Origin: Eledone cirrhosa
Lineage: Eukaryota
NCBI GenBank assembly: GCA_964016885.1
Contig: OZ024745.1
Location: 94,612,001 to 94,676,000, forward strand
DNA: 64,000 bases
Reading direction: 5' to 3'
This document shows, piece after piece, positions 1-63,780 of the stretch. Under the pieces are notes generated by a model. That model had not been told where the DNA came from. It ran no database searches and was given only the letters and a program-made list of their open reading frames with translations. Position 1 is the first letter of the stretch; each line of letters begins with the position of its first letter. The translations under genes were made by a program, and so were the position numbers.

Positions 1-956
1 TGGGTGTGCATGTAAAGACGCTGCTTGAATCTATTGGCGGTTAACCCTATGTAGGCCCTACGGGACGTGGGTGTTTCAACCTTACATTTGTAGACAAGGT
101 TACTACAGAGGCATTTCCCGTATAGGGGGCAATCAACCCGATTCCTACAATTACAGTTAGTACTAACTACAGGGTTGCACGTGTTCCTACGGCTAGGTAG
201 TTTAGCTAAATTTGAAGCTGCGATGTTATGTGCAAGGTTAGGAGTCGTAGAGTAAGAAATTTTAATAGTATTTCTATTAAAAATTTTACTATATTTATGT
301 GTAGGGGGAAAATGCTTCGTAATAAGGGAAAGAAAGATCTTAGCTAATGGTGTGGCCACCTCCATATTATATGGTGGGTTATACCAACAAATACGAGGGA
401 TCCATTTCTTCTAGGTATATTTTCGTACTCTGTATATGCTACCTTATCGACAAATCCACTCCGAGCATACGATCTATACGTGGATATTTTACGTCTTGAT
501 GTGGTAGCTAGGTATATGTTTTGTTTATACCATTACTTATTTGCATAGCGAACGTTTCCACGAACCAAAGTATCGTCTTCCTGTCTTCCTCCGGTTGCAA
601 CGTTTTTTGAAATATCCACTTCTGCATTTACAGATTGACTTTGTTAGTTTCAGAAGGTCCCGTTGAGGGTGAAAGCAACGATTCTTTGCTTAAACTTTAA
701 TCTGTTATTTTAATAAATATTTACTCTACGGTTCTTATATATTTGATATATATTTATCCTTATCGAGCCCTCTTTGGATTTTAGTCTTCAAATGTATTAT
801 TATTACTATATATATATATATATATATATATATATATATATATATATATATATATATATATATATAAGCAGAAGGGATATTCAATTTGTTGGTAATTCAA
901 CAAATATAAAGGTTTATAGCTGATTCAGAGCACTCGACAAGCTTTCTGGAGTATAA

Positions 957-1237
957 TATTCAATGATATTAAATAAATAGAAACTATATTTATAAAACCA
1001 TATTTATTCTATTATATATATTTCAAGGGTACCAGATAAATTTCCTATCCAAATCCTTGGATAGGAAAACTTGAAACGTTAAGGTATATTTTCCTTGGTT
1101 ATGTCAAAATTTATAAAACACACTTCGTATTTTATCTGATGATAGCGTACCAAAATTCTGGTACCCTTGAAATATATATAATAGAATAAATATGGTTTTA
1201 TAAATATAGTTTCCTTTTATTTAATATCAATGAATAT
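957..1237 (+). mobile_element. Non-coding PLE-type fragment with inverted arm and type I HHR
   Basis: Arms of about 80 bp (957-1036 vs 1157-1237) are reverse complements. The HHR at 1128-1188 overlaps the right arm. Confidence 0.65.
1128..1188 (+). ncRNA. Type I hammerhead ribozyme
   Basis: TATTTTAT CTGATGA [TAGCGTACCA AAATTC TGGTACCCTT] GAAA TATATA TA ATAGAATA. Confidence 0.7.
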
Positions 1238-1241
1238 CAGC

Positions 1242-1910
1242 GATGGTTGCTAAACACCGTACGGCTTAATTCGGGATGATTGTTTACAAACACACCGAGC
1301 ATTATAATAAATGTTCGGTAAATCCATACGTACATATATATGTGTATGCATGTATGTATATATATATACATACTACTGTACGTCTGTATACATATATGTA
1401 TGTACGTATACATATTATATTTAAGTAACAGCCGTACTAAGAGTGAGAAATGAAATTTCGTTTCATTTTTTCCGTTTATCGTTTTCGGTACACCCGGCAG
1501 ATTAACTCACTCGATATGCAAATTAGGCTGCTCAGCCGTTAATATGCATAAGGAAAGTATATACTTTCAGATGTTCAATCATCTGTCAGGAAGGTATACG
1601 GTGCTGACGATAGCTAATAAGCTTGAAACTAGTACAGCGTTCCTTTGTCAGTGTTGAACAAACGAGCAACGATGGTTGCTAGACACTGTACGGCTTAATT
1701 CGGGATGTTTGTTTACAAACACACCGAGCATTATAATAAATGTTCGGTAAATCCATATGTACATATAAATGTGTGTGCTTGTATGTATATATATATACAT
1801 ACTACTGTACGTCTGTATACATATATGTATGTACGTGTACATACATACTTACATTTAAGTACCAGCCGTACTAAGAGTGGAAATGAAATTTCGTTTCTTC
1901 TTTTCCGTTT
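1242..1910 (+). repeat. Partial tandem (429-bp period) of an HHR-bearing non-coding element, family B
   Basis: gatggttgct recurs at 1242 and 1671. Related copies at 33225-34163, 35405-35600, 36415-36455 and 39770-39900. Ends in (TA)n. Confidence 0.8.
1599..1639 (+). ncRNA. Minimal type I hammerhead ribozyme (family B)
   Basis: CGGTG CTGACGA TAGCT AATA AGCTT GAAA CTAG TA CAGCG, with palindromic stem III ACTAGT. Confidence 0.75.
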
Positions 1911-2984
1911 ATATATATATATATATATATATATATATATATATATATATATATATATGTGTGTGTGTGTGTGTGCATATGTGGGTGCCTGTGATCTATA
2001 TACACTGGCCATAGACACACACACACATATATATATATTTATTTATATATATATATATACATACACACTCACGCACATATAAATATATACACAACAACAT
2101 CACCAGCTCCCTCTCTCTCTTCCATTCTTCTGTGTCTCCTCTCCCTCTCTCTATTTCTCTATTTCAATCTACTCTCTCACAACCACTATCTCGTTCTCTA
2201 TATCCTTCTCTTTCTCTGTTTATGAAGGTACCAGGAAAAACCCCATTCTCGGGAACCCGTCCTCTGATTTACGCGAAATTTGTTTTATTCCATTTCTATT
2301 TGCATTTTAGGGTCAACTTCCTTTCAAAGTATTTTCCCATTATGCGCCCTTTTGGCTGTATTACATTACATTCAAGCAAGCAAGCTTGCAAGCAATCGCA
2401 GAGCTTTAGTAATATATAGAAGATAGATTGCACAATACTTATTTGTTCACTTTGTTATACTTCCCGTTCTCGCACGGCTGTCTCTGTTTAATAACTTTGG
2501 CAGATATAAAAATAAATCCCGAACTTTACTCGTGCAAAGTTTCTTTCCTCCAAACCACAATCATGCTGATAGGAAATATATTTATGGACATCTGTGCCAT
2601 CCATAATAATGAGAATGGCAGGAAGTTAGATCAAGTGTATATCAGTTGCATGAGTTTCATTTCGTAGCTACATCAAATTGAATTAGAATAGCTATATTTT
2701 GTTTTGAAATAAACGCATAAAACTTTGAACTGATTTGATCAAACGTACTATAAGTGTTTTTCACATTGCTACACTATATAAAGAGCTATCGAAATGTGAA
2801 ATTATTCCAACCGAAACCACTATATACATGGTATTCGTTTCATCGACACCGGAAGTATTATAGTGTCGACACATGTTTCGTTTATTTGAACACAAAATGT
2901 AGGAAGGTGAAATTAAATAGTGCAAATCTATTATTCTGAAACTTTACAGTTTTTAACACTCAGCCGTCCTATACACAAAGTTGC

Positions 2985-61350: not shown

Positions 61351-62236
61351 GATATGCATAGCTACGGCTTCCTAGAACTGTATTTCTTTGGAGATAGGAA
61401 ATATTTATACATATTGTACAAAGCTATGCTTGAAGCGAAATCCTATTTCTTTTCTATATATATAATAATAGTGAGTATAACCGAAGTTACAGCTGCGAGT
61501 AGCAGATACGGAATCGATTTTTAATATATATATATATATATATATATCTGTCTGTATCCCCCCCCTCTCTCTCTCTCTCTCTCTCTCTCTCTCTCTCTAT
61601 ATATATATATATATATATGAAATATAAGATTCAATGGCGTTTCTCGAAACGTAACAACCTCCTGTATCGAACTAAAGAACACCAGACTACGATCTCTAAC
61701 TGGATTGTCGTGGATTATGTGAAAGGCATATAATCGAAATATACACTCCCTTGACCTTGAAAATGCCGAAGTACATGAATTACTTGACATCCCTGCGCTG
61801 TGCATCTCCAATACTTATAACACTTTTAATGCTTGCACTATCTTTAATGCTTATAATATTTCTCCACACACAGACTATATCAATCATATAAAGACTTTGC
61901 CACCAGATCTACCAACCTAACACTCTTATTTACCTACCTAAGTGCCTCTACCACACATATCTCTCTGCCACACTATATAAACAAGACGCACATGCGTGCC
62001 ACACATATAACATTTGCACTATATAACCACTTATCTTCATGTTGTACTTTAACCTATATCTTTGATTTTTGATTGTACCTATTAATATAAATGTAATCTC
62101 GAAGTGTGTACTGCCACTCTAAATTCTGTAATGAATGTTGACCCACAATGTTTGAATATGTATCAATGTTTGAATATGTATTGGTATGTCTCTCGGCTGA
62201 AAAGGAGGTCATATAACTGTCCATGCATTAATAAAT

Positions 62237-62283
62237 TGCTCCGAAGAATCCAAACCTCGGTTTGGAGGAAACAGCTGTAAGCA
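62237..62283 (+). ncRNA. HHR-like motif (core CCGAAGA)
   Basis: TGCT CCGAAGA ATCCAAACC TC GGTTTGGAG GAAA CAGCTG TA AGCA; relatives in both arms of 63277-63780. Confidence 0.6.
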
Positions 62284-63276
62284 CAATAATGTTTTGAACA
62301 GTTCTTTGATTCTTATATTTCATATAACTGCTCTGTAAATCATCTGATGTTTTTACATTGAGCTACTTAACTTACTGGTAATAAGGTAGTAATACATTAC
62401 TGCCTACCACTATTTAGGGTGTGTGTAAAATACTTACAACTGCTTAAGGTTTTGTGTTTACATAACCATAAATAGTATAACTAATACTATATATATATAT
62501 ATATATATATATATATATAATCGGTAGATTCCCGAAAGGAATTGGGAAGTGACTACAGTTTAACTAGGTACTCAATACGTTGGTAGAGTATAAGAATCGT
62601 TATTTTGTATAGAAGTGATTTCTACATGACTAGAACTGTTTTAGTCCTGTAGAAGTCATTTCTATATAAAATAAATAAATATATATATATGTATATATGT
62701 GTGTATATATATATATATATATTATTAAGTGTAATTAAGTTTAAATTATTTAGAAGTGAAGCATATCAATTTGTCCCTGGATGTTTACTGAGGAGAGCAG
62801 GACATGATATTCCTACACTTATTCATCTCGAAACATATTTGGATTTTAAAGTTTAAACTTATCTACGGAACAGGTTTGATTTTGAAATTTAAATGTGTCT
62901 AAACATCATAGCCATTTGGCAATGCAGTTCGTCTTTGTTGATTTATTATTTTAAATTGATATGGACAAACTGTAGTATAATAATTAGTATACTTCATTCT
63001 GGCTAAATTTTCTTTTGCAATATAAATACAGATGTGTTGGTATCTGTGTTTCATCATATATATTAGTTTATATATATATATATATATATATATATATATA
63101 TATATATATATATATATAGTATTAAGGATACTATTTATGGTTATATATATACTAAAACCTTTTCTAGTTATATATATTTTAAACCCCAAATAGTGAAAGA
63201 CAGTAATTTATTACTATCTTATTACCAGTAAGATAAATAGCTCAATGTAACAACACCAGTTGTTTTACAGAGCAGT

Positions 63277-63780
63277 TATATATAAATTACATGAATCAAA
63301 GTTCTGTTTAAATCATTTATTGGCTTACAATTGTTTCTTCCAAACCGAGGTTTGGAGTCTTTGGAGCAATTATTCAGTGATTTTTTTACATACTTGACCT
63401 CCTTTTCAACACAAGAGAAATATAGAAACATATGTATATATTGACCCACAGTGGGTTGACATCCATTATAATAATATAGCATGGCAATTTACATACAAAG
63501 ATTACAGTCATATTAAAGTAACTTTAACTTTAATTTTGTCCTTTAATATGACTGTAATCTTTGTATGTATATTGCCATGCTATATTATTATAATGGATGT
63601 CAACCCACTCTGGGTCAATATATACATATGTTTCTATATGTCTCTTGTGTTGAAAAGGAGGTCAAGTATGTAAAAAATCACTGTATAATTGCTCCAAAGA
63701 CCCCAAACCTCGGTTTGGAAGAAACAATTGTAAGCAAATAAATGATTTAAACCGAACTTTGATTCATGTAATTTATATAT
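63277..63780. mobile_element. Fold-back element, ~240-bp arms, each with a degenerate HHR
   Basis: 63277-63516 is the reverse complement of 63541-63780. TGCT CCAAAGA ..CCAAACC TC GGTTTGG.. GAAA CAATTG TA AGCA at about 63690-63736. Confidence 0.8.

Follow-up and report, generated by a model that had tools for sequence, protein, structure and literature searches.

Hammerhead motifs in the window

The window analyzed here, 64,000 nt of Eledone cirrhosa DNA (contig OZ024745.1, positions 94,612,001 to 94,676,000, forward strand), is AT-rich, full of microsatellites, and dense in type I hammerhead ribozyme motifs, many of which lie at the ends of coding Penelope-like elements (PLEs) or in tandem repeats free of open reading frames (ORFs). 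An earlier note, made from the sequence of the window, had proposed that much of this TA-rich DNA is composed of PLE pseudo-long terminal repeats (pLTRs) and non-autonomous ribozyme elements. Because these elements occupy ∼38% of the window (spans partly hand-set), that wording was too strong. The elements, lettered by family, are listed below in window positions.

1-806, minus: family A Hydra-type element; linker and endonuclease cross the left window edge
468-806, plus: family A inverted pLTR arm; hammerhead 646-696 (U4A, A9G; monomeric stem III)
867-1237, plus: family B two-armed insertion; hammerhead 1131-1185
1238-1912, plus: family C putative retrozyme; 1.6 circularly permuted units of 429 bp; hammerhead 1599-1639
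4002-4561, unstranded: family D two-armed insertion; hammerheads 4053-4107 (minus) and 4456-4510 (plus); 3' end of a coding Hydra-type element
5057-6015, plus: family E putative retrozyme; 1.6 units of 595 bp; hammerheads 5099-5188 (U3:A8 core) and 5680-5769 (mutated core)
13849-16330, plus: family F; decayed Neptune-like thumb, linker, and GIY-YIG (13849-14727); minimal ACGU-type hammerhead at ∼16250-16290
17064-17153, plus: family G hammerhead
22150-23071, minus: older family H insertion; partial tandem and inverted arm; hammerheads 22340-22423 (minus) and 22908-22991 (plus)
26120-26167, minus: family Q hammerhead (G5A)
26246-26510 (limits by eye), plus: family I two-armed insertion; hammerhead 26356-26394; 3' end of a 4.2-kb Neptune-like coding element
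26967-33150, minus: family J Hydra-type PLE; reverse transcriptase (RT) and C-terminal GIY-YIG in broken frames (30391-28053)
26998-27062 and 30648-30712, minus: family J pLTR hammerheads; inverted 5'-truncated arm 31530-33150 with hammerhead 32956-33020 (plus)
33218-34169, minus: family C two-armed insertion; hammerheads 33430-33470 and 33871-33911 (U4C); inverted arm 33981-34169
35112-35156, minus: family K hammerhead
35656-35697, minus: family L hammerhead (A9U in the window copy)
37022-39737, minus: second decayed Hydra-type element; RT 39036-38077, endonuclease 37441-37022; J-like inverted arm with hammerhead 39630-39690 (plus)
39952-40158, plus: family A short two-armed insertion; hammerhead 40081-40131
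45230-45848 (limits by eye), minus: family N truncated copy; hammerhead 45285-45387 (U4C)
50113-53635, minus: family H putative retrozyme insertion; 6.6 tandem units of 485 bp, 7 hammerheads, C3 at 50267-53177
53365-53447, plus: hammerhead of the family H inverted arm; the whole insertion lies between (TA)n tracts and has no ORF
55195-55276, minus: family S hammerhead, monomeric stem III; new relative to the earlier note
55943-55998, plus: hammerhead of a D-related subfamily
56385-56424, minus: family R hammerhead; new relative to the earlier note
62082-62487, plus: family O truncated copy; hammerhead 62236-62284 (U4C)
62783-62844, plus: family P degenerate hammerhead
63119-63781, unstranded: O-related two-armed insertion; mutated hammerheads 63321-63369 (minus) and ∼63690-63735 (plus)

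A strict descriptor gave 18 type I hammerhead matches, compared with a mean of 0.08 and a maximum of 1 in 60 local dinucleotide shuffles of the window. Allowing imperfect stems with a palindromic stem III (score of at least 10) raised the count to 29 (shuffles: mean 0.075, maximum 1, n = 40), and the widest descriptor, which accepts imperfect stems, a palindromic or monomeric stem III, and U4A, raised it to 31 (shuffles: mean 0.5, maximum 5). The shuffle control that the earlier note had asked for therefore refuted chance as the source of the motifs. Because the core pattern itself holds no pairing rule, it provided a non-circular check: among its 85 distinct matches, stem I formed in 79 and stem II in 75, whereas after shuffling means of 15.7 and 12.0 did so (the sequences are related and hence not independent).

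Of the 37 sites proposed in the earlier note, 27 passed the widest descriptor and seven were mutated or minimal copies: those at 646, 5681, 33871, and 39627, copies of verified families, scored 9.5, 12, 11.5, and 14.5 under looser settings only; the copy at 63690 carries G5A, and the partner inverted to it, at 63364, scored 11.5 under looser settings; 16251 is a minimal ACGU-type motif with copies in five other loci; and 62788 scored 8.5. Sites 16486, 25239, and 36550 matched none of the descriptors, and the last lies inside a repeat with copies elsewhere. Additional motifs were found at 26162, 55271, and 56419, together with 63364 under looser settings and a borderline match at 44918. The 31 matches divide into 13 in ORF-free families, 11 in coding-linked families, and seven others. 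Of 111 motifs, 77% are followed by a TA tract within 300 nt on the 3' side, compared with only 22% of random positions, in line with the proposed association with microsatellites.

The high density is thus real, but "extreme" holds only in part. At one match per 2.1 kb, the window is ∼3-fold above the genome average; however, random stretches already carry one per 6.9 kb, and 8 of the 31 matches belong to a single array. Eight neighboring 10-kb stretches held seven matches altogether. Similarly, the "dozen unrelated families" of the earlier note proved to be 17–19 and not all unrelated, since hammerhead 55943 clusters with 4053/4456 and the layouts of B, D, and J are alike. All of G, K, L, M, P, R, and S have copies elsewhere, and no other copy of Q was present among the loci examined. 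Rfam returned no hammerhead among the 150 of 227 window matches listed, which were TA-driven microRNA artefacts only, and its hammerhead models reached the gathering score in none of nine loci.

Ribozyme architecture

In most matches the type I core, CUGANGA...GAAA...UH, was intact or a known variant. The self-complementary stem III segments named in the earlier note are present in the sequence; the palindromes are 6–10 nt long, and stem II frequently carries insertions of 30–75 nt. As hairpins the stem III palindromes have no or weak folding energy, but when intact they pair with themselves at -3 to -17 kcal/mol, which points to dimer-type hammerheads, an arrangement described for minimal hammerheads (PMC4209133). 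A palindromic stem III holds for most families, but A and S (40086 and 55271) have an ordinary monomeric one. Across dozens of families whose stem sequences differ, the core and both stems are retained, a U3:A8 swap included, and this points to selection for the fold. Self-cleavage of the motifs is predicted.

Families at the ends of coding Penelope-like elements

Eight window families form the ends of coding PLEs of Hydra or Neptune-like type, seven of which were linked at other loci and one (F) by its position in the window only. Consistent with the pLTR reading of the earlier note, a GIY-YIG endonuclease lies upstream of the hammerhead at a fixed distance in most of these families: 1118–1230 nt in D (nine arms), 777–850 nt in N (eight loci), 1441–1545 nt in O (five), ∼1000 nt in J (three), 204–284 nt in A (three), and ∼500 nt in I (two). 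Relatives of B with the same hammerhead type form five long pairs, 1.3–1.8 kb behind a Hydra-type endonuclease.

Full-length relatives of family O are 4.2-kb tandem units (spacing 4189–4199, compared with 3650 in J) with an unbroken Hydra-type ORF of ∼820 aa, in which an RT is followed by a C-terminal GIY-YIG domain; the order is the same in J. The O protein (P0001) bears the marks RWR, DKT, CNCRANRTC, CNLC, and CQH and has no CCHH, and the Hydra-type families have both a hammerhead in the pLTR and a (TA)n target. By residue marks and domain order, A, the relatives of B, D, J, N, and O are assigned to the Hydra-clade type. A Naiad assignment was considered for J and excluded because its endonuclease is C-terminal. 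Family I has a full 4.2-kb unit with a Neptune-like linker and endonuclease (ORF at locus L284); in this ORF and in window 13849-14727, a CX2-5CxxC linker precedes a C-terminal GIY-YIG with CCHH-type residues, so that F and I appear Neptune-like by linker and endonuclease motifs. The PLE proteins were not recognized by Pfam and were identified by tblastn and motifs; the one homologue of this main protein that carried a species name was from Argonauta (39% identity to the main element's protein).

ORF-free families

The earlier note had left open that every family might be the pLTR of a coding PLE. This is very probably not so for C, E, and H. Every arm of C (25 loci) and E (20 loci) was a circular permutation of one unit, 429 and 595 bp, respectively, and the sequence upstream was always the previous unit; H (seven arrays) consisted only of circular permutations of a 485-bp unit. 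The longest ATG-initiated ORFs in the C, E, and H units are 68, 113, and 48 aa, and the GC content is 0.37–0.40. Copies are dispersed over many chromosomes with near-identical units, and because 24 of 33 H units are identical across five chromosomes, H is a young family. In sequence terms the three families fit the definition of retrozymes without long terminal repeats (non-LTR retrozymes) (PMC7229834; 10.64898/2026.07.22.740005). The non-autonomous ribozyme elements of the earlier note are thus real but, among assigned families, fewer (three) than the 5'-truncated ends of coding elements (eight).

H (window 50447-50470 region), J, O, and the relatives of B carry the motif CTC(C/T)-N6-8-GTTGAG, which coincides with a junction site or follows it immediately 3'; common to coding and non-coding families, it is a candidate recognition signal. 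At loci L275-L276 (G000:C1:5738326-5752444), 31 tandem 466-bp hammerhead units and one inverted arm lie between TA tracts; the units are 67% like family C, to which they are distantly related. Two apparent links between C and coding elements were rejected: a C-like match near a Neptune-like endonuclease (L041) is an unrelated nested repeat, and an RT fragment beside C (L095) belongs to a separate insertion, with a TA tract between the two.

Pieces of another very common hammerhead family, with a near-palindromic ACAG..CTGT stem III, lie at window 4915-4980 and 62520-62680; elsewhere it forms 350-bp tandems, with no endonuclease in 13 loci, and it is probably a fourth retrozyme. A 743-bp tandem hammerhead family directly adjoins an H array outside the window (L230:763-2992). 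In young H units outside the window (L229, L230, and L281), the substitutions are all T>C on the ribozyme strand (five sites), too few to judge between RT error and RNA editing of the opposite strand.

Insertion anatomy

In nine families, the element meets (TA)n on its 3' side at either of two fixed sites, 56–172 nt apart; family A has a minor third site, and family I has one site. As many as 72 of 78 two-armed insertions paired one near and one far site, four used the same site twice, and two were unassigned (72 of 76 assigned pairs, p = 3.6e-17 against 50%). This one-of-each rule was followed by the ORF-free families C, E, and H in 29 of 32 pairs and by family A, despite its monomeric stem III, in 16 of 18. 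The element sequence at the 14 measurable junction sites is TA-like (run of 3.6 nt versus 2.0 nt in background, p = 0.0009). Only a weak hairpin (mean rank 0.38, 16 sites) follows directly 3' of the junctions. The arms of one insertion differ by 3.4%, compared with 5.2% to other copies, and are closer to each other in 48 of 59 pairs (chance neighbors may account for some of these pairs); where both arms carry variants, these are shared in 28 of 40 pairs. Of 85 unselected 5' ends, 62 lie upstream of the cleavage site and only one lies no more than 3 nt from it.

Genome-wide scale

In a sample of 59 fixed-position 10-kb stretches of the 3.0-Gb genome, the palindrome descriptor gave 81 matches (shuffles, 0–2), 19 of them in one array, which extrapolates to 4.1 × 10^5 genome-wide (bootstrap 2.4–6.5 × 10^5). 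The wider descriptor gave 86 (shuffles, 3), in 31 sequence clusters with an estimated richness of ∼70. The core is intact in 63 of the 81 matches, and most of the matches are intact or a known variant. Exact patterns counted over the whole genome occurred 80,205 times (reversed-pattern control, 149), 42,849 times (control, 628), 5,698 times (control, 0), and, for family O, 3,749 times (control, 0), or 132,501 together. For the first pattern the sample had predicted 96,476, and the total rescaled to the actual count is 2.8–3.6 × 10^5. By this calibrated estimate, more than 30 families account for about 3–4 × 10^5 hammerhead motifs in the genome, so that, in this large animal genome, several hundred thousand structured RNA motifs escape Rfam.

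For comparison, published figures are ∼38,500 BLAST candidates for Sm-alpha in Schistosoma mansoni (PMC2770079), 126,247 canonical motifs in the 28-Gb axolotl genome (PMC7229834), and 2,000–9,000 minimal hammerheads in each of several genomes (PMC4209133). The motif count and family diversity here exceed the published figures that we found, whereas the density does not, being similar in S. mansoni at ∼1 per 10 kb given the size of its genome; S. mansoni and axolotl have one or two families versus more than 30 here, and as methods differ, the counts are not strictly comparable. Our literature search, which left subscription papers largely outside, found no report of a cephalopod hammerhead or retrozyme, although the supplements of PMC8557442 may include cephalopods. 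In the available text of that paper cephalopods are named for Naiad remnants only, and they are not among the retrozyme hosts examined according to the available text of PMC7229834 and 10.64898/2026.07.22.740005.

Comparison with known elements

The elements are all of known kinds, namely Hydra-type and Neptune-like PLEs and non-LTR retrozymes. As described for the minimal hammerheads of PLEs (Cervera and de la Pena 2014, PMC4209133), the motifs have a type I fold, a palindromic stem III, an extra nucleotide or mismatch at the base of stem II, and a U3:A8 variant, and the elements occur as many families per genome, with inverted pairs 100–700 bp apart and mostly truncated copies; unlike the 2,000–9,000 per genome of that account, there are at least 132,501 exact matches here, and the palindromes of 6–10 nt and stem II insertions of 30–75 nt are further differences. 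The coding elements share with the Hydra clade (Craig et al. 2021, PMC8557442) the C-terminal GIY-YIG, RW(K/R), DKT, a CxCX5C linker, CxxC, CxH, the absence of CCHH, the hammerhead, the (TA)n target, tandem and inverted arms, and a tail at one end. They differ from the description in PMC8557442 in length (3.6–4.2 kb versus generally <3 kb, a typical rather than defining trait), in tails of 83–172 nt instead of 30–40 nt, and in the many families with thousands of copies.

C, E, and H share several traits with the retrozymes of the non-LTR kind described in animals (Cervera and de la Pena 2020, PMC7229834; Li, Clavereau and Pollet 2026, 10.64898/2026.07.22.740005): tandem units without ORFs, each holding a single type I hammerhead, a low GC content, co-occurrence with PLEs, and a proposed use of PLE enzymes. 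By comparison with these accounts, they stand apart in their units of 429–595 bp, their dimer-type ribozymes, and the PLE scar of each insertion (inverted arm, tail, and (TA)n target). The evidence for mobilization by PLEs is structural here and tree-based for the published retrozymes; it thus lends structural support to the proposal that animal retrozymes ride on PLE enzymes. The useful new result is mechanistic, in that each family has two fixed TA-like sites and uses one per arm in 72 of 78 insertions. This rule bears on how PLEs form their inverted arms and tails, a question that also touches the role of the ribozyme, and it can be tested in vitro; for such work the genome offers young insertions by the thousand, together with Hydra-type ORFs that are unbroken and partners that are ORF-free.

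Proposed mechanism and alternatives

We consider it probable that type I hammerheads sit at the 3' ends of many PLE families and in ORF-free tandem repeats within (TA)n, that PLE enzymes copy these repeats in trans, and that insertion proceeds as follows. The GIY-YIG domain would nick both strands of the self-complementary (TA)n tract, and each 3' end would anneal to a short TA-like patch, both patches lying in a single RNA or in a pair of RNAs that stem from one locus, with one strand priming at the near site and the other at the far site. Reverse transcription would pass through the uncut ribozyme and then stop at random, and head-to-head joining of the two cDNAs would create the inverted arm and the one-sided tail together. 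With a palindromic stem III, cleavage would require the encounter of two ribozymes, for instance in a tandem transcript, from which unit-length RNA would be cut out and perhaps closed into a circle, while single-ribozyme transcripts would remain whole. The template would be uncut or circular RNA because a cut monomer would end 30–280 nt from the start sites. Long arrays may have been partly enlarged afterwards at the DNA level.

The anatomy agrees with findings on the anole Poseidon element, for which cutting and extension of both strands, two RT start sites that bound the tail, and the use of uncut RNA have been described (PMC11167929); the one-per-arm rule is absent from that account as available. 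Several observations weigh against our reading. The anole element starts at RNA sites that are not homologous to the cut DNA (PMC11167929), so that the TA patches may not serve for priming and may instead be relics, and only one of nine Xenopus retrozymes was cleaved in vitro (10.64898/2026.07.22.740005). No autonomous partner for C, E, and H was present among the loci examined; no upstream endonuclease was found for B's own subfamily in 20 short and 8 long loci, which gave only an RT remnant at L227; and G, K, L, M, P, Q, R, and S were joined to neither the coding nor the ORF-free class. The 31-unit array carries periodic variants, a sign of DNA-level expansion, and one H arm (L230) mixes two unit variants, which is not expected from a single circle; a purely rolling-circle origin of the long arrays is accordingly not supported. 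Finally, 11 of 59 arm pairs are not closer than average, and the similarity of arms could come from later gene conversion. A more far-reaching version, in which the genome contains 3–4 × 10^5 hammerheads in 50–70 families, the largest set of catalytic RNA motifs so far found in one genome, both nicked (TA)n strands of PLEs always prime on the same RNA, one per fixed site, and ORF-free circles need only both sites to be mobilized, is put forward tentatively, and we are inclined to doubt that it holds in full.

Chance matches in AT-rich DNA would account for a few degenerate sites, such as the borderline 44918, but have practically no probability given 31 matches versus 0.5 in shuffles and 80,205 versus 149 in the reversed-pattern control. 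It could also be argued that everything derives from truncated coding PLEs, with C, E, and H as immobile satellite DNA amplified from pLTR remnants: eight families are coding-linked, the 31-unit array has periodic variants, local amplification is discussed by Li et al. (10.64898/2026.07.22.740005), and only 20–25 loci per family were examined, with 1.5-kb flanks. We regard this as very improbable because near-identical units are spread over many chromosomes, each insertion shows a separate 5' truncation, an inverted arm of its own, and junctions that follow the one-of-each rule (29 of 32 in C, E, and H), and the upstream sequence is always the preceding unit.

A rather unlikely but weightier objection is that the ribozymes are mostly inert passengers with no cleavage role in transposition, tandems arising by read-through or template jumps without circles. 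The 5' ends do ignore the cleavage site, variants are mixed within one arm, catalytic mutants left insertion of the anole element unaffected (PMC11167929), and PLE hammerheads are weakly active in vitro (PMC4209133). Passengers would not, however, be expected to preserve the core and both stems over dozens of families, the U3:A8 swap included. Alternatively, two RNAs joined through the palindromic stem III could template a dimeric enzyme, one per arm. The strong self-duplex energies and a predicted protein dimer would suit such a scheme, as would the overlap of the arms in sequence, which sets them apart from L1 twin priming. Nevertheless, the arms mostly share variants (28 of 40), which fits one template, and family A keeps the same rule with a monomeric stem III (16 of 18), making a two-RNA template improbable.

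Other features of the window

Decayed copies of a long interspersed nuclear element (zinc knuckle and RT), 68–85% alike and which we take to be L1/Tx1-like, lie at 8481-12822 and 57044-61101, and pieces of a further RT-bearing non-LTR element lie at 43126-44627 (minus). A tRNA-type short interspersed nuclear element (SINE) of 186–191 bp, presumably resembling octopus SINEs, occurs in tandem and single copies at 6935-7655, 20218-20606, and 23142-23769. ARAGORN called a tRNA-Phe(GAA), which may be SINE-related, at 24786-24859 (plus). A degenerate A-rich minisatellite (23–60 bp) at 54036-54600 adjoins the H array on its right.

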